35,050 nt of DNA from a virus. The notes under the pieces were generated by a model. It worked only from the letters and a program-made list of their open reading frames with translations, was not told the DNA's origin and did not search any database. Below, one piece after another: positions 564-33,462 of the stretch (positions are counted from its first letter, which is position 1; each line of letters starts with the position of its first letter). A program made the position numbers and the translations under genes. The stretch lies in the UHGV virus genome UHGV-0197915. One strand, given 5' to 3'.

Positions 564-2407
564 CGAGTAGGAGGCGGGATCACTCCCGCCGTCCTCTCAC
601 ACCACCGTACATGCGGCTCCGCATACGGCGGTTCATGTTAACACTGGAACTGCCTCTGCTGTTCCAGCAGTGATATCAGACCCTGCCTGCTGAACCACGC
701 ATTCTTTATCGCCTGATTCATATGGCTTGACCCTGAGTTCCACCATGGCCCGTGGTTGTTGTACGCTGAGATCATCGCCCTGTCCTTACTCAGCCCCGCT
801 CTTTGCAGGTTCTTCGTCCGGGTTCCCGGCCTCTTCCACTGCCGCCACAACAGGCACCGCAGTTTCCGTTTGATCCAGCCGTCCAGCTCTTCCTGCACTC
901 CTCTGACTTCCGTCAGCCTGAAGTAGCTTATCCATCCACGCAGCACTGGCGTCAGGGCATTGATTGTCGCTTTCACTGATTTGCTCCGGTTTCCCGTGGT
1001 CAGACTGCGGACTTTCTCCTTCAGCCTGTTCACGCTCGTCAGGGCTATTTTCAGCTTCGCCTGTTTGTGCCATGTCACACTGTACCCGAGGAACTTCCGC
1101 TCCCACGGGCGCGCCACCGCGCTCTTCTTCTCATTCACCTTCAGTTTCATTTTGTTCTCCACGAACGCCCTGATGTTCTTCAGCAGATGGTCGCCCGCTT
1201 TCCGGCTGCTTACGTTGATGTTGCAGTCGTCTGCGTAGCGGCAGAAGCTGTGTCAACGACGCTCCAGTTCTTTATCCAGTTCATCCAGCAGGATGTTCGA
1301 CAGTAACGGCGACAGCGGGCCGCCCTGCGGCATGCCCGCCTGTCCTTTATCGTTCTGGCCAGACGCGTCATCAGGAGCCTGTGATCCACCCGGTCAAAGA
1401 ACTTCTCCAGATCCATATCCACCACCCACCGTTTGCCGCCCCGTATGTAACGCTGTGCCTGTTGCACCGCCTGCCATGCGTTGCGCCCCGGCCGGAAGCC
1501 GTAGCTGGAGTCTGAGAAGCTTTTGTCCACGATGGCACTTAACTGCTGCGCAATCGCCTGCTGGATAAGCCTGTCCACCACCGTCGGGATGCCTAAGGTT
1601 CTCACGCCGCCATCCGGCTTCGGGATATCCATCCGGCGTATTGCCCGCGGCTGGTAGTTTCCGTCAATCAATGCCTGCCTGACACTGCGCCAGTTCTTCT
1701 TCAGCCACGGTTTCAACTCCGCCACGCTGAGGTTATCCACCCCCGCCGCGCCTTTGTTTTCCACCACGCGCTGATAAGCCAGCATCAGGTTTTCTCTCGT
1801 TATCACCGCTTCCATCGTCAGCGGCACTTCCGCTTTCGTTTGCCCACCCGCCGCCGTGCTGATTTCAGCGCCATCATGCAGCCCTGACGGATACCGTCCG
1901 TCTCCTCTGCCGCTGGCCGCAGTTGCCTGCGCTTGTGCTTCATTAATCATCATCGGGTTCGGATGTCCTAATCACGGTTAATCATGTTCGGCCCTTCATG
2001 CTGCCGGTTTTGCAGCACTACTACGGCGTCGGCTGACTTCTGCCGCCCCATCCCGGCACCTTACGACGCCGGTAGCACACTGGCAGGACGGCAGTTCTCC
2101 CGGGGTAATTCGCGCGACTTTCCTGCTTATGCCTGTCGGCTCTACGTTACAGCGTTCCGTGTGAGTATCGGGCTTTGGTGATGTATGCCACCTTACCCCG
2201 CTGCGCCGCCTTAACCGCTTCCTGTTCGTCAGGCCAGCATTTTGCATCCGGCTTCCTTCAGATTTCACCTCGCGATGAACACCCTTGCCTTCCGCTAACA
2301 CTTCCCCTCACCGGGTGTGTGGAGGACTTTCACCTCTTAGTCGTTCTTCAGCCACCACAGTTGAAGAACAGCGCCAGTCACGGCGCTACGCGCCATGCCC
2401 GGCGCAC
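564..2407 (-). mobile_element. Group II intron (bacterial class C-like placement), degenerate
   Basis: 5' end GTGCG (reverse complement of 2403-2407) 8-9 nt after a terminator hairpin; domain V-like hairpin near 605-640; RT/maturase ORF inside; intron-free version of the 3' flank present at 33601-33620. Confidence 0.7.
638..1953 (-). pseudogene. Group II intron-encoded reverse transcriptase/maturase, disrupted
   Basis: RT domains 0-4 in ORF 1210-1953; frame breaks near 1331-1345 where ~25 aa before the xPQGGxLSPLL motif are missing; in-frame TGA at 1253-1255 before the YADD motif; maturase domain continues in ORF 638-1162. Confidence 0.75.
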
Positions 2408-2852: not shown

Positions 2853-3074
2853 TCACATCCATTGAATTTGCTGCTGACCTGACGTTGTTGGATGCGGCGG
2901 CGCGGGTACTACCTCGCCCGATGATACGATGAAACGCTCGACTGTTTCAGTGGTCACAAACGTGCAACTGCAGTTGATGTTTGTGCACTGGTGATACCGC
3001 TCTTTTGTGGTATCAGTAAAATAGCGACTCGTGCGGGCGTGGGCGGCATGATGGCATTTCGGACAATGAAACAT
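2853..3074 (-). CDS. ogr: Ogr/Delta zinc-finger late-gene transcription activator
   Basis: MFHCPKCHHAAHARTSRYFTDTTKERYHQC…SGQQQIQWM closely resembles P2 Ogr as recalled; start placed at the Met preceding FHCP. Confidence 0.85.
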   Translation of the reverse strand: MFHCPKCHHAAHARTSRYFTDTTKERYHQCTNINCSCTFVTTETVERFIVSSGEVVPAPPHPTTSGQQQIQWM

Positions 3075-8279: not shown

Positions 8280-9473
8280 TTAGCTGTTGACCGAGTCCGA
8301 CAGGTTCGCCAGATAGGTATCGGTGATGCGCTGGCGCAGGGTCAGGTTTTCCAGCGGCGGGACGGGGGTATAGTCGTAATCGATATACAGTTTCCCCACT
8401 TTCAGGGTCGCGGTGTCGTTCGACTCCGGGTCGTACCAGCAGAAGCCGTCAACGATATAACCACTGGTTTTCAGCTCGCGGAATTTGGCATTGATACCGG
8501 AAACGATGTCGCGAATGAGGGTCGGGGTAATGGGTTTATCCATCGCCCACGCGTGCGCCTCCGCCATCGTGTCGGCCAGTACCTGCGCGGTGCGGGTGTA
8601 GTTCTCAAACAGGAAAAGCGGATCATCCGAGCAGGTACGGTTTCCCCAAAACTTGAAACCATCATTGCGGATAAGCGTGGTGACACCGGCCTGATTCAGC
8701 AGGTTGGCGTCGGTCGCCGGTTCCTGCAAATCCCACGATACTGAGGCACTGACGCCGGTCACACCGTTAACGCCAACGTTAGACAGGGTTTTATGCCAGC
8801 CGACCGTCTGGTCGATTTTGGCACGCAGGCCGAGCGCGCGCGCCGTCGCCCAGGCTGTCGCGGTCGCGTTCGCCGTGGTGTCCCATGCCAGAAAATCAGG
8901 GAAGATGACCATCAGCTCACGCTGGCTGAAATTCTCGCGGTAGTCGATGGCCTCGGAAATGGTTTTACAGCCCCATGCGCTGACATAGCCAAAGGCGCGC
9001 AGGCTCTGACAGGTGGACGCGAGTGCGGTCGCCACCTCCTGTGAATCCAGCCCCGGCACGCCGAGAATCCGTGGCTTAACGCCGGTGACGGTTTTCGCCG
9101 TCAGCAGGGCTTTCAGCCCGGTATATTTGCCGTTTTCGTCGGTGGTGCCGATGATATTAGAAATGGTCTGTTTGTGCGCCTCCTCGGGGTTCTCCGGATC
9201 TTCAATACCTTCGGCCACACGCACGGCCACGATGACCGGCTTGCACTGGTCAGCGATAGCCTGCAGGGACGCCGACAGCGTGCCCTGTTTACCGGCCTTA
9301 CCGATAGCGCTCTGCACGTTCGTAATGAGCACCGGCTCATTGAGGGGAAATGTTTTTTCGTCAGCATCGCTGGCCGTGCAGACCATGCCGATGATGGCCG
9401 TCGAAACGGTGGAAATGGTGCGCACGCCATCGTTAATCTCGATGACCTGCACGCCGTGATGATAGTCACTCAT
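8280..9473 (-). CDS. FI: Contractile tail sheath protein gpFI
   Basis: 397 aa at the P2 FI position. Confidence 0.85.
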   Translation of the reverse strand: MSDYHHGVQVIEINDGVRTISTVSTAIIGMVCTASDADEKTFPLNEPVLITNVQSAIGKAGKQGTLSASLQAIADQCKPVIVAVRVAEGIEDPENPEEAHKQTISNIIGTTDENGKYTGLKALLTAKTVTGVKPRILGVPGLDSQEVATALASTCQSLRAFGYVSAWGCKTISEAIDYRENFSQRELMVIFPDFLAWDTTANATATAWATARALGLRAKIDQTVGWHKTLSNVGVNGVTGVSASVSWDLQEPATDANLLNQAGVTTLIRNDGFKFWGNRTCSDDPLFLFENYTRTAQVLADTMAEAHAWAMDKPITPTLIRDIVSGINAKFRELKTSGYIVDGFCWYDPESNDTATLKVGKLYIDYDYTPVPPLENLTLRQRITDTYLANLSDSVNS

Positions 9474-9536
9474 CCGTTTAACTCCGTGGTTAAGGGGTGA
9501 GTGATATTTTCTGTTGTGTGGCGGGTGCGGGCTATT

Positions 9537-9561
9537 TGTCAGGGTTGGCTAAGGTCTGACA
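9537..9561 (-). promoter_or_regulatory. Candidate late-promoter dyad (TGTCAG-N13-CTGACA) upstream of FI
   Basis: Perfect 6-bp inverted repeat ~76 nt upstream of the FI start codon; the 9-mer CTGACACAA recurs in the O/P intergenic region. Confidence 0.35.
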
Positions 9562-9570
9562 CAACGACGG

Positions 9571-9598
9571 GAAAGGAAAAGGCGGGCAACTGCCCGCC
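9571..9598 (-). terminator. Rho-independent terminator after gene G
   Basis: GGCGGGCAACTGCCCGCC hairpin followed on the minus strand by TTTTCCTTTC. Confidence 0.55.
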
Positions 9599-9608
9599 AG
9601 ATGTCGGA

Positions 9609-10187
9609 TCAGACTGGCAGCGGCGGCCATTCAATATCCGGAGCATCCTCCGGCTGGATGCGGCTCAGTAAAACACGGTATTTTTTCCATGCAATGAGGT
9701 GCGTTTTTTCATCGTCGGTTGCCATCTCCAGATCAACGGAGTCCTGTAATGTCGCAACCGCAGTATTGGCCTGTTTAAGAAGCCTGTTTTTGTTGTTTTT
9801 CGCAGCCTCTGTCAATGCATTACGTGCAGCATCAGCATCATCAACCCATGTTTTACCATCCCATTTCTGCCACGGGTTTTCCGGCACAACCGGTGTTGTT
9901 CCTGCCGGATACTGACCCGGCTCGGTTATCTCCCTCTCATGACCTGTTTCGGTGTCATAGACAACCTCCCCCCGGTGGTCTTCAGTGATAGCCCAGCAAC
10001 CATTTTCAGTGTCATAAACCGGAATAAATCCGTCTCGGGTTTCCGGGGGCTTTTCACTGGTGCAGCAGGCGGGCAATCCGGTAAATGCCGGTATCAGGGC
10101 GTCACCTTTTCCAATAAATTCACAGGTGTCTGCACGAAAGTTATACACAGTGATAGTCCGGCTTTCTCCGGTCATTTTAAACGTCAT
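9609..10187 (-). CDS. G: Tail fiber assembly chaperone gpG
   Basis: 192 aa directly downstream of the tail fiber gene, start overlapping the H stop. Confidence 0.7.
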   Translation of the reverse strand: MTFKMTGESRTITVYNFRADTCEFIGKGDALIPAFTGLPACCTSEKPPETRDGFIPVYDTENGCWAITEDHRGEVVYDTETGHEREITEPGQYPAGTTPVVPENPWQKWDGKTWVDDADAARNALTEAAKNNKNRLLKQANTAVATLQDSVDLEMATDDEKTHLIAWKKYRVLLSRIQPEDAPDIEWPPLPV

Positions 10188-11872
10188 TATGCGAGTCTCA
10201 CGATATAGTTAAAGGCGATGTTTTTGATGGTGTTTTCTGCATTACCCGACGCGGCGATCGTAATGGTGTGACCGTGTGCGCCAATAGCAACGGAGTGCGA
10301 GTGTGCGCCAATCCCGACATTATGATTGTGGGCACCAATCGCCACGGTATGCGCGTGATTACCTGCAGTTGATGTTGTTTTCGTTCCCGTCGCTATTTCG
10401 TTACCGTCGGCGGCCTGTCCCCCGGCCTGATCTCCCCGGTGTACGGTAAAAGTGTGCGCATGGTTGCCGGTTGCATTAGTGGTTTTTGTCCCGTAGTCAA
10501 AGGTCGTGGTGGTTTTCGTTCCGTGGTCAAAAGCACTGGTGGTTTTCGTCCCTAAATCGGTGCTCGATGCGCTGGCACCGTGGGCGTGCGATTTAATGCC
10601 GTCCTGCTCCTGAGACAAAATAGCGCGCCCACTTGCGGGTTTACCTTTGATTGTCCAGCCCCGCATATCAGGAATAACACCCGATGGGTACACCACAGCA
10701 AGCAGCGGATACGCGGCTTTATCAAAAGTTTGTCCCTGCATGACGGCATAGCCAGCAGGAACACTGTCAGACGGCCACGCAACGGGAGCGCCTACCGGAA
10801 AAACATCATCAGGCGTCCACGGTGTCCATGCGCCTGTTGAATACTGGCTGCGCGAGTAGCTCCGGGAGCTGTTATAAACCCGGTATACCTGAGTCACTCC
10901 GGCATTTTTATAAATGACCAGCGTCCCGGCGTTATTTTCAGGGTAATGTCTGGCGGCTGAGGTATTAGAATTCGCTGGCTGAAAGTAAATACCCGGCGTT
11001 TTAAGGGTGTCTAAATCCTCCGTTATCAGCCCAATAGCCTGGTCGTCGAAAATATCCTGCGAGGTGACACTGGTGTCAGCATTCAGGGAGTGTCCGTTAA
11101 TTTTGCGCGAGGAAGGAACGCGGCCATCAGCATTATCATTCGCCGCTTTCACCGCTTTTGGCGTTGCGGCGAGCGTCTCAGACACGCTGTCGATGGCGCT
11201 ACTGAGCTGAACAATCCCTTTCTGCGCCGTGGTCGCGTCCTGAGCCGAGTATTTACCTTTCGCAAGGTCATACGCCGCCTTAACCGCTTTCGGTGTCGCG
11301 GCGAGCGCCTCAGACGTGCTGTCGGTCGCACTGCTTAACTGCGTGAACCCTTTTTCTTTCAGCGTGGCGTCAGGATGGCGGCGGGACTGCTCATGCTCTG
11401 CGAGTTTGTCGTCGACATAATCCTGCGTCGCCATCACCAGCGTGGTATCGATGGACAACTCGACCGTGTCGATATCACTCACCATGATCACCATACGCAG
11501 CGTCTGCGCACGACCTGATCCTTCCGCCAGCTCGGGTTTGTAGCTTTCGGCCATATTGCCGACCGCAATCAGCGTGCCGGTGTCATCGTAAAGCCCCATT
11601 TCACGCAGCCAGAAACCGCCGGTCTCCGGGGGGATCACCAGCTCCGCCACGACATAATTTTTATGTTTTTTGTCCTGGCTGATTTTGTTCAGGACATGAC
11701 GCCAGACCTCATTGACGAGTTTTGTCTGGCTGGCGTCCGGTTCGGGCAGTTTTCCGCCGCCGTCCCCGACGGCCATCACAGCAAAATTGACTTTCTTCCC
11801 GTTCGGGAGCGTCGCCGCCGCCAGTTTTTCCGCACCGGCTCGGGTGATAACGGTTTTATATTTCACTGTCAT
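10187..11872 (-). CDS. H: Tail fiber protein gpH
   Basis: 561 aa; internal duplicated [11 protein letters not shown] segments; C-terminal His-rich GxHxH repeats. Confidence 0.85.
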
Positions 11873-13320: not shown

Positions 13321-13668
13321 TTAACTCAGTGGAAGGGTGATAGAAAAAGGCTGGCCTGATGCCGAACGCGTGCCGGTCATATCGACGTACATCGCGCCGT
13401 CATCCTCTCCGCGTTCAACGGTGATGGTCGACAAACTGACGCGCGGTTCCCACCTCTGGATCGCGGAGTAGCACGCGGCCATAATCTGCAGACGCAGCGC
13501 CGGGGTCTGCGGCTGGTCAATCAGTGCAGACAACAGCGAGCCATATTCGCGGCGCATGACGCGCGAGCCCACTGGCGTGACCAGAATGTCGCGCACGCTT
13601 TGCCTGATGTGCTCAACTTCAGAAATACTGAGGCCGGTCTGGCTGTTCATTCCCAGATAACGCACCGT
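13321..13668 (-). CDS. W: Baseplate protein gpW
   Basis: Start chosen at MTVRYLG (ATG overlapping the V stop by 1 nt); ~115 aa as in P2 W. Confidence 0.75.
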   Translation of the reverse strand, partial: TVRYLGMNSQTGLSISEVEHIRQSVRDILVTPVGSRVMRREYGSLLSALIDQPQTPALRLQIMAACYSAIQRWEPRVSLSTITVERGEDDGAMYVDMTGTRSASGQPFSITLPLS

Positions 13669-14309
13669 CATTTGACCCCCTTCGTCCAGTTTCCGCCCGG
13701 CTCCACGCCACCATGATCGTGGGCATCGACCTGCACGCCGTTTGAGGTAAATTTCCCTTCGGTGTGCTCGATGTTCCCCGACATCGTCCCGCCTTTTTTC
13801 ACTTCGAGCGTGCCGGTGATGAGCTTGTTGGTACACACCACCTCGGGAGTATCGAGGGTAATGCGGGTTTCGGCTTTCACCAGCACCACCGGCACGATGG
13901 CGGTAATGGACTCCGACGCGGTAACGTCGGCGGTTTTAATACCGGATACGGTGAGCGCCCCGTTTTCGGGTTCGTACTCGATAACCACCCCGTCAGGAAA
14001 AGTGACGTGAAACGCATCGGACGAGGCCGACGGCGCAGGATGGTCATCAGAGAAAATGCCGGGCAGCACAAAGGCTGTGTCCAGCTCGCCACCAATGGCA
14101 AGAATGAGCACCTGCTCGCCAACAGAAGGAGCCCACCACACCCGCGAGCGGCCGGCGCGGCAGGTCAGCCAGTTAAGCCAGGTGGTTTGCATCCCGCCGG
14201 TCTGTACACGACAAAGCCCCTCGACGGGGTCGACGTCGGTCACAATGCCGGTGCGGATAAGGTTGCGGATCGCCCGAGCGATTTCCTGTAAAGAATTTAA
14301 ATTATTCAT
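13668..14309 (-). CDS. V: Baseplate spike/assembly protein gpV
   Basis: Start chosen at MNNLNSLQEIARAIRN (213 aa); the longer ORF upstream looks like read-through. Confidence 0.75.
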   Translation of the reverse strand: MNNLNSLQEIARAIRNLIRTGIVTDVDPVEGLCRVQTGGMQTTWLNWLTCRAGRSRVWWAPSVGEQVLILAIGGELDTAFVLPGIFSDDHPAPSASSDAFHVTFPDGVVIEYEPENGALTVSGIKTADVTASESITAIVPVVLVKAETRITLDTPEVVCTNKLITGTLEVKKGGTMSGNIEHTEGKFTSNGVQVDAHDHGGVEPGGNWTKGVK

Positions 14310-14572
14310 GTGGAAAGGATGCCGACTGGAAAGGCTAGTGGCAATCAAGTGGAGTTTTATGGGAGATGAAACAACAATTATCAGCTTTAAAATATCAGTA
14401 TAATTCATCCCATTAGATTAATGAGAGCCACATAAAGGATTTATCAAATAGCAAAACTTAGAAATGAAATAAATCTCATAGACATTTCATCATGATATAA
14501 AATTATTTTCCGAACTCTTACCAAAGCAGATATGGGGCTAAATTATCAAACAGCCCCACGAATATTAAAACA

Positions 14573-15154
14573 TTATTTTCCACAAACCATATTATCTATC
14601 GCGGCCATATAGGATACAAACAGATCTACATAACCACTTACGTCAGTGAGACTAATATCATTTGCATTGTCGTTATGATGAATAATGTTATTTCTCTTTA
14701 CAACCACTGCATTCACAACATCCTTATTCGCATTAAATTCCGCCGAATTCAAAAGATTAACACCCAAATAAGAAAATGCCTTAATCGTCTTGTAAGGATT
14801 ACCAGATAGGCTATCCGACACCTCACTTTTATCAACCTTTAAATCAGCATCTATATATTTCAACTCCTTATCTTTAACATCTTTTTTGACTCGCCAAAGC
14901 AAAAAATTGTGTGGCAAGCAGGCTGCTTTAAGCCTGCGATTGATGGTATCGCAGTGCCATGTTGCAACCTCAGTCAAATACGACTCTAAATAAGTGCAGA
15001 GTGTAATAAGATACGATTTAACAAAAAAATTAATGTTCTTATTGAAGAATTCATTTTCCTCAAGGATAGCCTGTTGCTCCGTCTCCTTAATAATTTCTTT
15101 TAAGGATAAAAATAATGAACGATATCCATCATAGTATTCAGTATTTTCCATCAA
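14573..15154 (-). CDS. HEPN-like protein (RNxxxH motif), predicted RNase-type effector
   Basis: 193 aa, AT-rich; KRNNIIHH matches the HEPN Rx4-6H signature; overlaps the upstream DUF262 gene by 17 nt. Confidence 0.5.
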   Translation of the reverse strand: MMENTEYYDGYRSLFLSLKEIIKETEQQAILEENEFFNKNINFFVKSYLITLCTYLESYLTEVATWHCDTINRRLKAACLPHNFLLWRVKKDVKDKELKYIDADLKVDKSEVSDSLSGNPYKTIKAFSYLGVNLLNSAEFNANKDVVNAVVVKRNNIIHHNDNANDISLTDVSGYVDLFVSYMAAIDNMVCGK

Positions 15155-16187
15155 TAACTTCCTTAAGAAGTGCCACCCAACTAGCCCTACGCTTCATCAC
15201 CGAACTCTTATTCTGTAGCCCACCTGATAAAGTTTTTTTGAACTCAGCACTTGAACAAAGAGTAAACCAAGCATTCCGTATTTGTTCGGACTTTTCATTT
15301 ACAATATCATCATTTAACTTGCCAATTGTAGGCATTAAAATGTCATAATGAACTAACCCTTTACGTTTTCTCCTAACTGTAGGGTTTGTAAATACATCTT
15401 CACCAAATATTTTTTCACACTTAGATAATGATGTTTTGAATCTCTCCCTCATAATATTCAGTTCATCATCTTTTAAGTCTGAAAATTTTTCCATATGATC
15501 ATCCAAGAATTCTTTCAAGGAGCTATCAAAGTAATCAAAAAAGTTATCTTCATAAAATGCAAAAAAACGCAAAACTTGTTCGTCTGGCTCACGACTATCT
15601 CTTTTTACTGTAGTTGTTTCCGCCAAACCAAAATTTTTAATGGCATCAATATTACCTAACTCTTCTAATAATTCATCAAACCCTCCCGGATATAACGCAT
15701 GTCTTATTTCTTGGTCAGAAAGTTTAACTGCCCCCTGATTGAGTCTAGAAAATATCTCTCTTATTAATTTTTTGGGATTTTCTTTTCTTAGAACAATGCA
15801 TCTTATTGTTGTCGACTCTAACTCTGAACGTAGAGATCCTAATTCAGAAAACTTTTTCCCTTCAAGCTCTTTAAATGTAGTCATTCCCTCCAAAGCGAAC
15901 TCGTCATCAAAAAATTTCTGTATTGTGGTTAATCGCTGAACACCATCAATTACAATATGATTGCCGCTATCATCTTCTGCAAAGTAACAAGATGGAAGAG
16001 GAATACGCATTAAACAAGATTCAATGAATTTTGAAGATCGCAGCCATCCGTCCTGATCCCATTTGTACTTTCTTTGAAAGTCTGGATTCAGTTTTAGTTT
16101 GATGGGATTGGACTTCATCCTAGAACATAAAGTCTCAAATGGATAATCTATGGGGAATAAATTCAATGTTTTATCATCGTTAGACAT
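15138..16187 (-). CDS. DUF262 (ParB/GmrS-like NTP-binding) domain protein
   Basis: 349 aa; N-terminal PDFQRKYKWD … IDGVQRLTT motifs characteristic of DUF262; AT-rich cargo gene between S and V. Confidence 0.6.
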   Translation of the reverse strand: MSNDDKTLNLFPIDYPFETLCSRMKSNPIKLKLNPDFQRKYKWDQDGWLRSSKFIESCLMRIPLPSCYFAEDDSGNHIVIDGVQRLTTIQKFFDDEFALEGMTTFKELEGKKFSELGSLRSELESTTIRCIVLRKENPKKLIREIFSRLNQGAVKLSDQEIRHALYPGGFDELLEELGNIDAIKNFGLAETTTVKRDSREPDEQVLRFFAFYEDNFFDYFDSSLKEFLDDHMEKFSDLKDDELNIMRERFKTSLSKCEKIFGEDVFTNPTVRRKRKGLVHYDILMPTIGKLNDDIVNEKSEQIRNAWFTLCSSAEFKKTLSGGLQNKSSVMKRRASWVALLKEVIDGKY

Positions 16188-16322
16188 GCTTCAATCCTTG
16201 TAAGTAAAAGCTTAAAAAATCAACGAGGTAGCAGACAACAACAATATTTACCATTTTTTATGATTAAGGTCAAAAGGTCGGTAAGCTAGGATTCGTCTTA
16301 TGAGACTTGCAACCGTAAATAG

Positions 16323-16769
16323 TCAATTTAGATGTTCAATAACCAATTTTTCAATCAACAAATTGTCTCTAAAGTCAACACCAAGCAACTGCCGTTCTGG
16401 GTATTGCACGTCCTGAGCATGTGGGTTTGGCCGGTCTTTAAGTCCGAGCTGATGAATCTGAGCAATGCGTTGCACCTTGCCGGTAAACTCGACCACCGCT
16501 GCATCATCGCGGCCTCTGGCTTTCATGTAGCGGTTCGTTCGCAACTTCTGAAACATCGTCCGCTTAATACGCCCTTTCTTCGCTCTGAGCGGCTGGCGTT
16601 TTCGCGCCTGATACGGCGTGCCATCAGGCGCTTTTTGCTGTTTGATGCGTTGCTGTTGCGATCTGCGCATTTGCTTTGCTATTTCAGCGGCCAGCTTGCG
16701 CCGACCCGCCGGTGATATTGCCGCAATCAGTCCCGCCAGTTTGTCATCAAAAGGTTTAAATTCATTCAT
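16323..16769 (-). CDS. S: Tail completion protein gpS
   Basis: 148 aa at the P2 S position. Confidence 0.8.
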   Translation of the reverse strand: MNEFKPFDDKLAGLIAAISPAGRRKLAAEIAKQMRRSQQQRIKQQKAPDGTPYQARKRQPLRAKKGRIKRTMFQKLRTNRYMKARGRDDAAVVEFTGKVQRIAQIHQLGLKDRPNPHAQDVQYPERQLLGVDFRDNLLIEKLVIEHLN

Positions 16770-24994: not shown

Positions 24995-25705
24995 CTAAAT
25001 TTCAAAAATAATCAATGAATAATTATCCCTAGTCTCTCTACTCTCAACAAGCTCTATTACACTAGCACCATACTCATTTAACGAATTATATTTCACTGAA
25101 AGATCTCGGAAATCTTTTTTGCTCACAACTGACGAAACCCCGTCAGATAGCAAAGCTATTCTATCACCTATCTGTAAATTACATTCAAATTCATGGACTT
25201 GTAGAGGCTTGTGTGCACCAAGGGCACTATCAAGAATGTTCTTACGAGGGTAATCAACTGCAGTCTCTTTCGTCAGCTTACCTTCACGTAGTAGACGAGC
25301 TACTTCACTGTGATCATAGGAAAGTTGTTTGACGCCACTTCCTCTTAATAGATAAGTCCGAGAATCTCCACAATTGGCTCCTATCAATTTATTCCCGATA
25401 AGCTTTGTTACAGTCACAGTACTTGCCATTCCAGCCAATTTTCCATCTTTCTGAGCAGCATCTTTGATCGCTTCATCAGCTCGGGTTATGGCTTCGAGAA
25501 GAGAGATGCTACTATCCGAACGCATGGCCGCAGCAATAATGTCCAGTGCTAATTGAGAGGCTGTTTCTCCCCCCAAATTCCCGCCGACACCATCCGCAAC
25601 GCCACATAACAAATCAGCGCTGGGTAAAATCTCAACCAAGATAGAGTCTTGGTTGTGGCTTCTAGGTCCCGGAGATGTGTAAGCAAATTTATTAATCAAT
25701 GGCAT
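24995..25705 (-). CDS. PP2C-family Ser/Thr protein phosphatase
   Basis: 236 aa with GVADGVGG, GDSR and SDGV motifs; AT-rich; start overlaps the kinase stop by 10 nt. Confidence 0.7.
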   Translation of the reverse strand: MPLINKFAYTSPGPRSHNQDSILVEILPSADLLCGVADGVGGNLGGETASQLALDIIAAAMRSDSSISLLEAITRADEAIKDAAQKDGKLAGMASTVTVTKLIGNKLIGANCGDSRTYLLRGSGVKQLSYDHSEVARLLREGKLTKETAVDYPRKNILDSALGAHKPLQVHEFECNLQIGDRIALLSDGVSSVVSKKDFRDLSVKYNSLNEYGASVIELVESRETRDNYSLIIFEI

Positions 25706-27027
25706 ACTCTTTGTATCATTGCGAAAAGTTCAGGATGAAGCATATCAGGTGTGGCACCAATTGATCTTTGGAGATGACTCACCGCTGCACACATTCTACC
25801 CTCAAGTATGCTCATTTCCAAAGCAAGCCTTTTAGCCAGTTCTGGAGTCATGTCGTGCCCTGCCACGCTCATGAAGCGTCTCTCGACATACCAACGATTA
25901 TGCGACGTTCCCATAAGAAGCATAGCTATAATAATTTCGGCTTTACAGTTCAAATCGTGAAGTTGTAAAAATTGTTCGAGACGAGTGCAAATCCCATCAC
26001 ACTGTTCGAATGAAAATACTCCATCCGCAACCCAACGACCATATGCTTCACCAAGACGACAAGCTAGCGTGGTATCATGAGCGATTATCTCATTAATCCT
26101 GTTTAAAGTTAGACGCTGAAATATCACCTTGGAGTTTTCTTGTCCAATATTATCCTCTACGAAATTGATTATTTCCCTCCATGTTTCAACATTAATTCCG
26201 GCGTCACTATCTAATGCTGTAGTATATGTTCCAACCTCAGCAGAGAGATGTATTACTGTAGAAGGATCAATACTAAGAATTGCATCCCTTAATGCTGCAA
26301 CACTTGGAAATCTTCTTGAAGGATCTCTACGAGTACAAACCCGTAAAATATGCGCATATGCGCTCGAATCATTATTAATTTCACCACAAGGAATTCTTTC
26401 ATCCGTGCCTACAAAGTCATGCAGTATACACCCCAAAGAATAAATATCTGAAGCAATACTAGCTTTTCTAAGATCTGAAACAATTTCAGGTGCGGTGTAG
26501 TAATCAGAACCCATTTTCATACCTGTATGGGTTAGTGCTGAAATTTGAGTATCTTTTACTGACATCAGGCCAAAGTCGCTAATAGCGTAATATGGACCTT
26601 CACTTGAATCAAATCTAAGCACATTTTGTGGTTTGAGATCACGATGATAAATTTGCAACGTGTGCAATTCTTCGAGTCCAGACAAAATATCCATTATTGC
26701 TCTTAAAAATAATCCATTCAAGTTTCTACTTTGCGCAATATCTTTATCAAGGCTAGATGCTGCTACTGGCATAAGGAAAGATGGAGGGTTACTATTTAGA
26801 TCTTTAAAAAGGACAGGTACAATATTTTTATGCGTAAGTCTATACTGTACGTTTGCCTCTCTTATAAATCTTTTTTTTACATTCTCTGCCAAATCAGGAG
26901 GCAGCGGTTGAGCTTGATTTATAGAAAATGTTTTCCTAGCGAATTGCTTTCCGCTAAGGACATCTTGCACTAAATCAACATTACCAAAACCGCCACTACC
27001 TATCCGTCTAACTTCATTAATCACCAT
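25696..27027 (-). CDS. Eukaryotic-like Ser/Thr protein kinase with ~180-aa C-terminal domain of unknown function
   Basis: 443 aa with GSGGFGNV glycine loop, HRDLKPQN catalytic loop, DFG and APE motifs; AT-rich. Confidence 0.75.
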   Translation of the reverse strand: MVINEVRRIGSGGFGNVDLVQDVLSGKQFARKTFSINQAQPLPPDLAENVKKRFIREANVQYRLTHKNIVPVLFKDLNSNPPSFLMPVAASSLDKDIAQSRNLNGLFLRAIMDILSGLEELHTLQIYHRDLKPQNVLRFDSSEGPYYAISDFGLMSVKDTQISALTHTGMKMGSDYYTAPEIVSDLRKASIASDIYSLGCILHDFVGTDERIPCGEINNDSSAYAHILRVCTRRDPSRRFPSVAALRDAILSIDPSTVIHLSAEVGTYTTALDSDAGINVETWREIINFVEDNIGQENSKVIFQRLTLNRINEIIAHDTTLACRLGEAYGRWVADGVFSFEQCDGICTRLEQFLQLHDLNCKAEIIIAMLLMGTSHNRWYVERRFMSVAGHDMTPELAKRLALEMSILEGRMCAAVSHLQRSIGATPDMLHPELFAMIQRVCH

Positions 27028-27417: not shown

Positions 27418-27651
27418 CTATGGCTTCGCCATATTTGATGGCCGAAACGCCTCAATTTTCGGATTGCTGATATCGCTGTATTTGCGGTGATTATCCCGGA
27501 CGACACCGGCACACCCGACCAGTTCGTCAGGGGTCAGATTCTCGTTAATCATAATTTGTTGCAGGCGATGCACGACGGCCATCAGCTTAATGTTTTGCGT
27601 TGAATGTACGGGCGGCACTGGCATCATTCGCATATGACTCATTTTAACCAC
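27418..27651 (-). CDS. Hypothetical protein (77 aa)
   Basis: ORF overlapping the upstream gene stop; no recognisable motif. Confidence 0.35.
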   Translation of the reverse strand: MVKMSHMRMMPVPPVHSTQNIKLMAVVHRLQQIMINENLTPDELVGCAGVVRDNHRKYSDISNPKIEAFRPSNMAKP

Positions 27652-28103
27652 CCATTTTTTTTAGCATCTGCGACCAGCTTGTCGGAATATTGCCAGACAC
27701 CATCACAAGCGACATAAGCCCCCCCCGAAACGCCGTTAAGTGTTTCAAATCCAATAGCCAGCCCTAACGGGTGTAGAATTTCGTGATTAATTCTGAAAAC
27801 AAGCCCCTTCTCGCTTAACTCTTTCCAGTTCATTAGGGACATACCGCACTTGACATCTGGCATCATTAACTGAAAACTCAGCATCACATAATTTTCCGCC
27901 CATTCAGATAAATCAGTAACGTATGTCACCCTCACTGATACACGTTTCCCGGTATATCCGTTTACCGGTTCCCATTCATGCAACCCGAGAATATCACCGC
28001 TAGAATAATCGCGGTTATTGAGACGAAATTCAGCACGTTTTTCCTGAGATATCACAGCGTTAAAATGCTCAGGTGCAATTTTTAACTCATGGATTTTGCT
28101 CAT
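27639..28103 (-). CDS. DUF3850/ASCH-like domain protein with extra C-terminal domain
   Basis: Start MSKIHELKIAPEHFNAVISQEKRAEFRLNNRDY… resembles DUF3850; ATG overlaps the gene A stop (TAATG) and is preceded by AGGAG. Confidence 0.55.
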   Translation of the reverse strand: MSKIHELKIAPEHFNAVISQEKRAEFRLNNRDYSSGDILGLHEWEPVNGYTGKRVSVRVTYVTDLSEWAENYVMLSFQLMMPDVKCGMSLMNWKELSEKGLVFRINHEILHPLGLAIGFETLNGVSGGAYVACDGVWQYSDKLVADAKKNGWLK

Positions 28104-30391
28104 TATTTCCACTCCTCTTGAATTGAGAATCCCGGCCACTCATCAGCAGCCGCGTATTTGAATTTTTTATCGCCATAAATCACCGTTGCCCCACGCACCA
28201 GCGCTTCGAGCTCCCACCGTTCCGGGGTAATGCCCTCCTGAGCCAAATCGAAACGAATTTTCGCCACGCGATCCCTTTCTGGTTTTGTCATCCTGGCTGA
28301 TGGAGCTTGCTCACTCGTTTTGAGTAGCGCATTGCTTCTTTGCTGGCGATTTTTGCGAGGGATGCCAGCTCTTAACGCACCGTTAAGCGCCTTCATGACG
28401 TCTGGCTCATTCCATCCGATAACTCCGCGCTCAATCAGATTTAACACCGCTGCGGCTTGCTCAGACGGTGTGGGTGTCATAACTGGAGTATCACCGTCGG
28501 TGAGCTTTCCACAGTTATTGACAGGACTCCGAGGCGCGGCAGCGCCGCTTTTTAAGGTCAAAGGCTCAACGGCCAAAACCTTTGGAACTATGCGCCATTC
28601 CGCTGTACGGGTTACATGTACGCGGCTCGCCCCAAGATGAGGGGCATAAATACCGACCACTTTCTCGATATCCTCCTCGTATTCGTTTACCTCATCCGTC
28701 ACCTTACGGGCGACCCTGACCACCTGAGCATCACGCGGCATGTTTGCCCCACCCTGCGCGCTGATGTACAGGTCAAATTCCCCCTCATCTGCAGCAGCCC
28801 GGACGGCCTCGACACGGTCGTCAAACTCGCTGGCGATACTCACCCCGCGCGGCAGCTTACGCAGTTCGCGGTAAGCGCCCATTGTCGGGAGGCCAATCGG
28901 TTTAAACTGAGGGATACGCCATGTAGACGCCCATGCGGTTACGGCTGCGGCCGTATCTTTCAGAGGTTTGCCGGTATCGTGATCGAGCTGACCGTCAAGC
29001 GCGTAGCCGTCGATATTTTTGGCAATGTATTTGGCGATATAACCCGCCGCGCCCCCCTGATTAAGGTGACGCGACTCAAAGCGCTGTTTTGCCGCGCCCT
29101 TTTCGTGTCCGTCCTCTTTGAGGGCATAACGACGCATAATTTCGTTGATAGCTTTACGCTGACCGAGTTTGCAAAAAAGCATCATATGCCAGTGTGGCGT
29201 GCCGTCGTGGTGCGGCTCGACAACGCGCATCCCATACACTTCCAAATCGTTATCTTTGAAAGCGGTACGCATCAGGCTCCAGATTCGGCACAGATAGCGC
29301 TGGCCGTTTTTAGGGGTGAATGCGGTTTCGTTCCAGCCGTGATTGAGCTGCACCGTTTTGCTGTCACCTTTGCCGACCTGTCGGGTCGGGTGATACTTCG
29401 ACGGCGTGGTCAGCGTGATAAACATTCCCACATCACCAACGCTGGCCGCATAGCGTTCAATTCCGGCAATGGTATTCATCAGCTCCATACGGCGTATTTC
29501 AGGGTTTGAAATACTCCCCATGACTTTACTGATGAGGTCGATACGTTCGCCGGTAACTTTGTTTTCCAGCTCACAGGATTTCAGGTATTCGAGATTAGCC
29601 AGCCGGCGCGAGTGAACCTCGCGGATCGCCATTTTGCTGGCGTAAGGTGAACGGTCTTTGTTGACTTCACCGGCAGCGATAAGCAGCGCCTCACGCCAGC
29701 GCATACGCTGCGCCTTGAGCTGGTTAACCCACCAATCATCTTTTATCAGACGGGAAATAGCGGAAAACGCCATGCGGATCGTCATCTGACCCTTACGGTA
29801 TTTTTTCCAGTAGAGCGGGGTTAAGTTGAACGCGCGTGCAACACCAGCCACCTGACCATATATGTGCACCTGCGCCTCATCGGTGAAAAGGGTCTCTTTA
29901 CCGCCGAATGCCTCAGCCCATTCGTCGCTGAGTTCCTCGTATTTACGCCAGAGCTGCGCGGCAATTCTGGCCGCAAATTTTTTCAGCTCTTTGTCATTCA
30001 TATCAGGCAAGCGCGCATATTCGTCATGCTCAGACAAGAAACCAATCGACGCAGATTCATTCATCCCGCACAGCTCGTTAACGCGCTCAAGACGCGGCAA
30101 CAGCTTCCGCTCAAAGGTGTTTTTCAGGAAATAGAGCGCCCCGAGCGGGCTCTTTGTGCGGCGAATGAAGTTATAACGGGAAGTAAACAACGTCTTAAGA
30201 AAGAAAGGCAGGCGGTCAATCCGGTATAAAACACCTTGCACCTGACGGAATTCGGCACGTGTAAGGGGTCTGTCACGGCCAATGGCAGCGCGGGGAGCAT
30301 TCCAGGGATAAGCACCAACGAAAGTATCGCCGGTGCGCTTAGATATTGGCAGGGCTAGCGAGGGGGCAATACGCCCCCGAGTCTCAACGGC
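28103..30391 (-). CDS. A: Replication initiation protein gpA (rolling-circle nickase)
   Basis: Start at MAVETRGRIAPS…; strong similarity to P2 A throughout as recalled; 762 aa. Confidence 0.85.
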   Translation of the reverse strand, partial: AVETRGRIAPSLALPISKRTGDTFVGAYPWNAPRAAIGRDRPLTRAEFRQVQGVLYRIDRLPFFLKTLFTSRYNFIRRTKSPLGALYFLKNTFERKLLPRLERVNELCGMNESASIGFLSEHDEYARLPDMNDKELKKFAARIAAQLWRKYEELSDEWAEAFGGKETLFTDEAQVHIYGQVAGVARAFNLTPLYWKKYRKGQMTIRMAFSAISRLIKDDWWVNQLKAQRMRWREALLIAAGEVNKDRSPYASKMAIREVHSRRLANLEYLKSCELENKVTGERIDLISKVMGSISNPEIRRMELMNTIAGIERYAASVGDVGMFITLTTPSKYHPTRQVGKGDSKTVQLNHGWNETAFTPKNGQRYLCRIWSLMRTAFKDNDLEVYGMRVVEPHHDGTPHWHMMLFCKLGQRKAINEIMRRYALKEDGHEKGAAKQRFESRHLNQGGAAGYIAKYIAKNIDGYALDGQLDHDTGKPLKDTAAAVTAWASTWRIPQFKPIGLPTMGAYRELRKLPRGVSIASEFDDRVEAVRAAADEGEFDLYISAQGGANMPRDAQVVRVARKVTDEVNEYEEDIEKVVGIYAPHLGASRVHVTRTAEWRIVPKVLAVEPLTLKSGAAAPRSPVNNCGKLTDGDTPVMTPTPSEQAAAVLNLIERGVIGWNEPDVMKALNGALRAGIPRKNRQQRSNALLKTSEQAPSARMTKPERDRVAKIRFDLAQEGITPERWELEALVRGATVIYGDKKFKYAAADEWPGFSIQEEWK

Positions 30392-32448: not shown

Positions 32449-33462
32449 ATGTCTGTTAAAAAGCTCGATGATGGTCGTTATGAAGTGGACATTAGACCTG
32501 CAGGGCGCAACGGAAAGCGCATCCGCAGGAAATTTGACAAGAAAAGCGAAGCTATCGCTTTCGAGAAGCATACCCAGTACAACCATCACAACAAAGAATG
32601 GTTGGCGAAACCGACAGATAAGCGGCATCTGTCAGAGCTAACAAAAATCTGGTGGGAGCTGAAAGGCAAGCATGAAACTCACGGCCGAGATTACCTGGGC
32701 AAGATAGAGTTGTTCACAAAGATAACCAGTGACCCTTGTGCCTTTCAGATTACTAAGTCATTGATAAGCCAATACAGCACTGTGCGGCGTTCTCAAGGCA
32801 TCAAGCCATCGAGTATAAATCGTGATTTAACGTGTCTTAGCGGGATGTTTACCGCGTTGATAGATGCGGAGCTATTTTTCGGGGAGCATCCTTTCCGAGG
32901 TCTTAAAAGACTCAAAGAGGATAAGCCAGAAACCGGCTACCTGACGCAAGAGGAGATCGCGCTTCTGCTGTCAAAAGTGGACGGTGATAATAAAAAAATT
33001 GCGATTCTTTGCCTTAGCACCGGCGCGAGATGGAGTGAGGCAGCAAAACTGAAAGCGGAAAATATCATTCAAAATCGCGTCACTTTCGTTAAGACAAAAA
33101 CCAACAAGCCGCGAACCGTTCCTATATCCGAGGAACTGGCAACAATGATCACAACGGGTAAGCGTGGCTATCTGTTCACTGATGCTAACTATCCCGCGTT
33201 CAGACGGCTAATGAAGGAGCTGAAACCCGACCTACCACCGGGTCAGGCTACGCACGCATTGCGGCACAGCTTCGCCACGCACTTTATGATAAACGGAGGC
33301 AACATTATCACGCTTCAGAGAATACTTGGGCATTCAAGAATTGAGCAGACAATGACATATGCGCACTTCGCCCCTGAGTACCTACAGGACGCGATAACGC
33401 TTAATCCTCTACGTGGTGGTGTTGGCTCTCAGAGTGTCCACACAGTGTCCACAGTAGGGTAG
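32449..33462 (+). CDS. int: Tyrosine integrase
   Basis: Start at MSVKKLDDGRYEVD preceded by GGGAGG; C-terminal R…HxxR…Y catalytic region (HALRHSFATH … MTYAHF); 337 aa. Confidence 0.85.
   Translation: MSVKKLDDGRYEVDIRPAGRNGKRIRRKFDKKSEAIAFEKHTQYNHHNKEWLAKPTDKRHLSELTKIWWELKGKHETHGRDYLGKIELFTKITSDPCAFQITKSLISQYSTVRRSQGIKPSSINRDLTCLSGMFTALIDAELFFGEHPFRGLKRLKEDKPETGYLTQEEIALLLSKVDGDNKKIAILCLSTGARWSEAAKLKAENIIQNRVTFVKTKTNKPRTVPISEELATMITTGKRGYLFTDANYPAFRRLMKELKPDLPPGQATHALRHSFATHFMINGGNIITLQRILGHSRIEQTMTYAHFAPEYLQDAITLNPLRGGVGSQSVHTVSTVG
33437..33455. promoter_or_regulatory. Putative integrase arm-type sites (TGTCCACA-cag-TGTCCACA) overlapping the int 3' end
   Basis: Exact 8-bp direct repeat ~95 bp from the attR core; same octamer as at 541-559. 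Confidence 0.4.

Follow-up and report, generated by a model that had tools for sequence, protein, structure and literature searches.

A candidate anti-phage gene pair of the PD-T4-2 architectural class in the S-V slot of a P2-like Escherichia coli prophage

Two lines of published work bear on the gene pair described here. In GmrSD, BrxU and SspE, the DUF262 domain is a nucleoside triphosphatase (NTPase) and sensor that controls an attached nuclease acting on modified DNA (PMC10952713; PMC12065111). PD-T4-2, from E. coli ECOR65 (QOYX01000002:338334-339873; CDS1 RCO39066.1), was listed by Vassallo et al. (2022; PMC9519451) as 'DUF262, HEPN', and HHpred assignments in their Table S3 give DUF262 for PD-T4-2A (99.7%) and HEPN_RiboL-PSP for PD-T4-2B (97.8%). 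The cloned system protected against T4, and its deletion from ECOR65 restored T4 plaquing (PMC9519451). The domain pairing itself was on record by 2013, when Anantharaman et al. noted 'Ribo L-PSP-HEPN ... operon with ParB' (PMC3710099). Here we analyze a two-gene cassette with the same pair of domains in the UHGV virus genome UHGV-0197915, a stretch of 35,050 nt (the window) that is a complete P2-like E. coli prophage, running from ogr (2856-3074) to int (32449-33456) with the P2 gene order kept throughout. We consider it probable that the two genes form a self-contained anti-phage unit that spreads horizontally, belongs to the PD-T4-2 architectural class and serves here as lysogenic-conversion cargo; its slot, flanked by tail genes S and V, is the position of orf30 in P2.

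The cassette consists of two overlapping open reading frames (ORFs), genes A and B, lying on the minus strand between gpS and gpV, which have the same orientation (Table 1). GC content is 32-38% over 14.2-16.4 kb, compared with 54-62% in the flanks. A preliminary description, made from the sequence alone, had proposed a horizontally acquired, AT-rich DUF262 and HEPN pair at this place, and the ORFs, the drop in GC content and Pfam all confirm it. Protein A matches GmrSD_N/DUF262 over residues 21-166 of 349 (4.1e-23) and protein B matches HEPN_RiboL-PSP (9.1e-18), both far over the curated cut-offs; GmrSD_N is the sole domain that Pfam reports in A, with no match to DUF1524. The motifs quoted in that description are likewise all present: FQRKYKW (motif I) and DGVQR (motif II) in A, which also has FSRLN as motif III, and KRNNIIHH (Rx4H) in B. 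All 27 A sequences compared, distant phage homologues among them, keep the three DUF262 motifs unchanged (Q38-R39-x3-W43, D81-G82-x-Q84-R85 and F146-x3-N150), and R153, N154 and H158 are invariant in 30 B sequences.

Protein B has the all-alpha HEPN fold, with the R-x4-6-H motif in the last helix pair, as expected of the superfamily, and in structure it comes closest to HepT, the toxin in HEPN-MNT toxin-antitoxin pairs. HEPN proteins function as RNases, and we propose that B is a predicted HEPN RNase. The only fold match of A in the PDB is BrxU. Sequence searches of the PDB with A and with B returned nothing, NCBIfam gave no meaningful match for either, and in PHROGs A belongs to a family of unassigned function and B to none. 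Gene B could start at a TTG at 15154 (193 amino acids) or at the ATG at 15151 (192 amino acids), the one taken in RefSeq. This ATG lies 14 nt within the 3' end of A, just behind a Shine-Dalgarno-like AAGGAAG, so that the translational coupling suggested earlier is plausible.

A DUF262 gene followed by a co-oriented HEPN_RiboL-PSP gene, without DUF1524, ATPase or methylase, is the architecture of PD-T4-2, and the cassette matches that system in architecture, not in close sequence. It had earlier been taken for a different, unnamed sense-and-kill arrangement; this view has to be given up, since PD-T4-2 has the same domain pair. Therefore, the cassette appears to be a likely defence module rather than a new kind of system.

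At the level of sequence, the cassette is a distinct and widespread proteobacterial family. Both protein families are tight and extend across Gamma-, Beta- and Deltaproteobacteria, with homologues 62-68% (A) and 46-57% (B) identical. Nine homologous loci were examined, from Pantoea, P. aeruginosa, Geoalkalibacter, Aeromonas and viral contigs, and A is directly followed by B in every one; the genes overlap by 8-14 nt in seven of them and are separated by about 14-25 nt, as placed by tblastn, in the other two (L019 and L024). Identities to the window copy drop in parallel for the two proteins (94/89, 89/73, 85/74, 66/52, 62/49 and 59/47% for A/B), and when two separate lists of homologues were compared, at least 30 A and B homologues were on contigs of matching length. 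One P. aeruginosa assembly came without a called B, and the gene was found intact on checking. The locations of the copies are diverse. Related viral contigs (L014-L018) have the cassette in the same S-V slot, an 85%-identical copy occupies the gpA-portal (old/tin) hotspot of a Pantoea P2/186-like prophage, and an 89%-identical copy sits at the tail-fibre edge of another prophage. The P. aeruginosa and Aeromonas copies are in small non-phage chromosomal islets, and the Geoalkalibacter copy adjoins an integrase fragment and ParDE-type toxin-antitoxin genes. The two genes are inherited together and move between prophage slots and islands. Of 5,426 complete E. coli genomes, 30 carry the cassette at 99% identity or more, and in these RefSeq labels the products 'DUF262 domain-containing protein' and 'HEPN domain-containing protein'; many of the carriers are human isolates, and several are strains named NDM3-NDM6. 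Among 50,697 phage records, megablast found no match to the locus, and a tblastn of B against phages found none either.

The slot that holds the cassette is itself informative. According to the preliminary description, the gap between S and V is empty in P2. This is incorrect: the nonessential orf30 lies there, on the other strand, and TO, Z/fun and orf30 are the three classical foreign-gene regions of P2-like phages (PMC3091744; PMC6823313). The cassette takes the place of orf30, its limits falling exactly at the S stop codon and at the conserved region of the pV promoter, and it is AT-rich like other P2 morons. Unlike the cassette, P2 orf30 is a single opposite-strand gene; its function is unassigned, and neither Pfam nor PADLOC gives it a match. 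Sister E. coli prophages whose S and V are 83-90% identical hold other cargo in this slot. One of them (L005) has a 328-amino acid hypothetical protein there, and another, in E. coli GPT24-02 (L006, 1474-2187), has a Tin homologue on the opposite strand (PADLOC Tin, 2.1e-88). Tin is a known anti-T-even gene product, and in P2 itself tin sits in the gpA-portal region. The presence of tin in one slot of P2 and in the S-V slot of that sister prophage indicates that defence genes move between P2 slots. The earlier suggestion of a candidate anti-phage module in a cargo position of a P2-like prophage is supported. Recent hotspot surveys stress the gpA-portal and Z/fun regions and treat late-gene sites briefly. 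With Tin in a sister prophage and the candidate cassette here, the S-V slot merits counting as a defence hotspot.

We infer a defence function for the family and, by analogy with its relatives, suggest how it might work. In a lysogen, the two genes would form a single transcription unit driven by a sigma70-like promoter of the cassette itself, and would probably also be reached by read-through from the late O operon. Protein A, with a ParB-like DUF262 NTPase domain and a helical domain equivalent to the 'ParBDB' of NsnA and SspE, may bind DNA and sense infection; the most plausible cue would be phage DNA, either incoming or modified, by analogy with GmrSD, BrxU and SspE. Binding or hydrolysis of nucleoside triphosphate by A would turn on B, which would cleave RNA at its R-x4-H site, and phage production would stop through abortive infection or growth arrest. 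The same relatives also suggest a DNA-targeting system akin to type IV restriction, in which A, through its ParB-like nuclease fold, would itself be a nuclease or damage modified phage DNA, and B would be an accessory, regulatory or RNA-binding subunit. GmrSD, BrxU and SspE do act on modified DNA (PMC10952713; PMC12065111), BrxU is the fold match of A, and PD-T4-2 was selected on T4, whose DNA has glucosyl-hydroxymethylcytosine. However, A is without the DUF1524/HNH domain, the cutting part of all three enzymes, in which DUF262 serves as the NTPase and sensor, and the invariant R-N-x3-H catalytic motif of B would argue for an active RNase. We regard a DNA-targeting system as quite improbable.

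A role in addiction deserves similar consideration. Here B would be a HEPN toxin and A a protein antitoxin or repressor, and the main role of the pair would be to stabilize the cassette or the prophage. The kinship of B to HepT, the tight operon of two overlapping genes and the position of the Geoalkalibacter copy among toxin-antitoxin genes fit this proposal, but the gene order and sizes are unlike those of HEPN-MNT pairs, and a Pfam scan found no minimal nucleotidyltransferase (MNT) antitoxin beside B, whose partner is the DUF262 protein. Moreover, the full set of invariant NTPase motifs in A would be needless in a simple antitoxin, and the architectural twin PD-T4-2 protects against phage. 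An addiction module is therefore unlikely in our view, and it overlaps with a defence module in any case because many toxin-antitoxin systems also defend by abortive infection. We likewise looked around the cassette for an RNA antitoxin like those of AbiF or type III toxin-antitoxin systems; no notable tandem repeats, significant repeats or Rfam match were found there, and with no repeat array and no Rfam element beside the cassette we rejected this idea.

Several results weigh against assigning the cassette to a defence module of the PD-T4-2 class. When the locus was scanned with PADLOC, as had been proposed earlier, only A gave matches, the best to NsnA (6.6e-80, over 333 of 385 model positions) and the second to PD-T4-2_A (9.5e-43; 144.6 bits, positions 45-354 of 363). 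A genuine Menshen NsnA scores 142 bits on the latter model, so the PD-T4-2_A match is non-specific and points to kinship at the superfamily level only. For B, no PADLOC 2.0 family matches at E<=1, PD-T4-2_B included; this is equally true of the B proteins of L019 and L024 and of the ten weakest full-length matches to the B profile that were scanned. A search of 1.84 billion representative proteins with the B-family profile gave 150 matches at E<=0.001 and 67 at E<=1e-30, and recovered only B's own compact family. The DUF262 half of A is modelled with low confidence. Generic scans for promoters and terminators did not exceed what shuffled sequence gives and called neither the proposed promoter nor the hairpin after B, and in the literature searched we found no published mechanism for PD-T4-2. 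As to the PADLOC result, version 2.0 misses such loci because their HEPN partner diverges beyond the PD-T4-2_B model.

The cassette appears to bring its own control elements (Table 1). Upstream conservation begins about 85 nt before the ATG of A, with the promoter-like block first and the ribosome-binding site also included, and the block is kept in three contexts: the S-V slot of the window, the gpA-portal slot in Pantoea and the edge of a prophage (L030). It is this conservation across contexts, instead of a generic scan, that leads us to propose it as the cassette's own promoter. The hairpin reported earlier downstream of B is real, but it is not a canonical terminator, as it has no T-run and went uncalled by the scan; possibly it is a weak terminator or an RNA end. 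A hairpin also lies 3' of B in Pantoea, and in P. aeruginosa a GC stem of canonical form is followed by a T-run. In the window, the hairpin is flanked by an imperfect direct repeat of 16 nt (14496-14511 and 14566-14581, 14/16 identical; minus strand GGAAAATAAT.TTT.A), the first copy of which contains the stop codon of B; the repeat may have arisen by chance or be a scar left when the cassette inserted. On the left, flank alignment shows that homology with the sister prophages stops at the S stop codon. On the right, homology among the window, L005, L006 and P2 resumes at a TGTTGT block about 67 nt before the V ATG, a position that matches the annotated Ogr activator site (10239-10266) and pV promoter of P2.

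P2 has a rho-independent terminator after S, at the end of the O operon (L002, 9397-9433), with no counterpart in the window at 16323-16275. Because a P2-type terminator is lacking after S, late transcripts probably read into the cassette. This matters for the proposal that the cassette is not a defence module at all and serves to control the phage's own late transcripts, to interfere with P4-type satellites, or is a decaying passenger. The cassette is co-oriented with the late operons and so is probably expressed late in the lytic cycle, and P2 orf30, in the same slot, is without an assigned role or database match. Nevertheless, both ORFs are intact and their catalytic residues are invariant across proteobacteria, mostly outside P2 phages, which is incompatible with decay or a P2-specific role, and the same cassette is found in the non-phage islets of Aeromonas and Pseudomonas. 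We consider non-defence cargo very improbable.

Table 1. Coordinates of the cassette, its putative control elements and the boundaries of the slot in the window
Feature	Position	Strand	Remarks
gpS, tail completion / virion morphogenesis; left flank of slot	16323..16769	-	Pfam Phage_tail_S 1e-35; 48% identity to P2 gpS
Promoter-like element TTGACC, 17-nt spacer, TGgTAAATA (extended -10 type)	16245..16273	-	Putative promoter; conserved with cassette across contexts
Gene A, NsnA-like ParB/DUF262 NTPase-fold protein with helical C-terminal domain	15138..16187	-	349 amino acids; proposed sensor/regulator
Gene B, RiboL-PSP-type HEPN protein	14573..15151	-	192 amino acids; proposed RNase effector
Stem-loop right after B stop	14532..14559	-	9-bp stem, 10-nt loop, no T tract; fold -18.1 kcal/mol, z -1.9
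AT-rich spacer, hairpin to late V promoter	14377..14531	.	Common to L017 (same phage lineage) only; not to sister prophages with other cargo
Conserved gpV upstream region, starts TGTTGT; right slot boundary	14310..14376	-	Homology of window, L005, L006 and P2 resumes here
gpV, baseplate spike; right flank	13668..14309	-	Pfam Phage_base_V and Phage_spike; 73% identity to P2 gpV; RefSeq annotation in L001

Some further observations concern the slot and the rest of the prophage. Insertions of the IS5 family are present at the slot in two of the 30 carrier E. coli genomes. IS903B in strain 2024CK-00535 (L034, 884-1852) lies between gene B and gpV, within the AT-rich spacer, and probably severs the V promoter; ISKpn26 in strain 5CRE51 (L035, 2725-3705) has inserted at the start of gene A, shortening it by 7 codons at the 5' end and parting it from the promoter-like element. 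Elsewhere in the window, the gpA-portal hotspot (24995-27027, minus strand) holds overlapping genes for a PP2C-type phosphatase (236 amino acids) and a Ser/Thr kinase (443 amino acids), the latter with PADLOC matches to mad6 (4e-33), PD-T4-6 models (~1e-32) and Stk2 (1e-22); the prophage thus seems to have another candidate locus for defence. Adjoining gpA is a DUF3850/ASCH protein (27639-28139), and with only ~140 bp separating G (tail-fibre assembly) from FI (sheath), the Z/fun slot (~9473-9615) appears to be empty. Fragments of a group II intron reverse transcriptase/maturase lie just beyond ogr (638-1953, minus strand; RVT_1 2e-19, GIIM 5e-22), and the annotation of strain KV7 gives this reverse transcriptase as a pseudogene interrupted by a stop codon.

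DUF262 and HEPN pairs of other sequence families occupy the TO region of P2_4B2 and the Z/fun slot of Klebsiella phage ST16-OXA48phi5.4, so that each of the three classical cargo slots of P2 can hold DUF262-HEPN modules. An IMG/VR contig (L020, 516-5227) has a DUF262 protein (371 amino acids) and a RiboL-PSP HEPN protein (238 amino acids, RTELAH motif) between two divergent integrase genes, an arrangement reminiscent of a satellite or integrative-element hotspot. None of the P2_4B2, Klebsiella phage and IMG/VR candidates matches PD-T4-2_B when scanned with PADLOC. When hhalign was run with the B-family profile against HEPN proteins from other DUF262 modules, the one link obtained, a weak one, was to that of the Klebsiella phage (76%, E 2e-5); those of L020 and P2_4B2 were unlinked. 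DUF262-HEPN modules are a diverse class, of which PD-T4-2 is the one tested member.

We also put forward a broader proposal, for which we judge the chances to be slightly short of even. The A/B family may be an independent, widespread proteobacterial defence system that goes uncalled by PADLOC 2.0, in which a DUF262 NTPase would directly gate a HEPN RNase and recognition of phage DNA would lead to a response at the RNA level, without the ATPase transducer of Menshen or the DNA nuclease of GmrSD; and the S-V/orf30 slot may be a third defence hotspot of P2-like phages, swapping cargo with the gpA-portal and Z/fun regions. The findings are relevant to surveys of prophage-encoded immunity in clinical lineages.

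Comparison with the described systems places the cassette as follows. It shares with Menshen (NsnA-NsnB-NsnC; Millman 2022; Li et al. 2025, PMC12065111) the ParB-DUF262 motifs QRxxxW, DGxQR and FxxxN and a helical C-terminal domain, both in A. Unlike Menshen, it has no ABC/OLD-type ATPase NsnB, the genes downstream of A being those for the HEPN protein and then gpV, with no Walker-type protein, and no match to NsnC (inPIN plus nuclease). A genuine Menshen locus (L021), scanned as a positive control, scored 362 bits for NsnA, 352 for NsnB and 145 for NsnC (1e-42), and we excluded Menshen as the family of the cassette on account of the missing NsnB ATPase and NsnC. With GmrSD, BrxU and SspE the cassette shares the N-terminal DUF262 NTPase-fold sensor domain, but those enzymes are single polypeptides with a C-terminal DUF1524/HNH DNA nuclease, whereas here the HEPN protein is separate; since A has no DUF1524 domain, type IV restriction of the GmrSD/BrxU type was excluded as well. 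HepT-MntA, other HEPN toxins and HEPN proteins of the AbiD/AbiF type differ in that the partner of B is a DUF262 protein, with neither an MNT antitoxin nor RNA-antitoxin repeats or an Rfam match. PD-T4-2 stands closest in design. Both it and the cassette are two-gene operons of E. coli with a DUF262 protein of about 350 amino acids followed by a small HEPN protein, the second protein is assigned to HEPN_RiboL-PSP in both (by HHpred there and by hmmscan here), and neither has a DUF1524 nuclease or an ATPase. The two differ in that their sequences are distantly related, as judged by PADLOC profiles and published domain assignments, and PD-T4-2B is apparently ~165 amino acids long with its motif near residues 111-131, from the HHpred coordinates in Table S3, compared with 192 amino acids and R153 in B. 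The domain pairing, the RefSeq annotation and the variable locus were already known; what is new is a sequence family that PADLOC 2.0 does not capture. If active, this family would be a second, sequence-distinct representative of the DUF262-HEPN class beside PD-T4-2 and would help to define the essentials of such systems, especially how a ParB-type NTPase controls an RNase.

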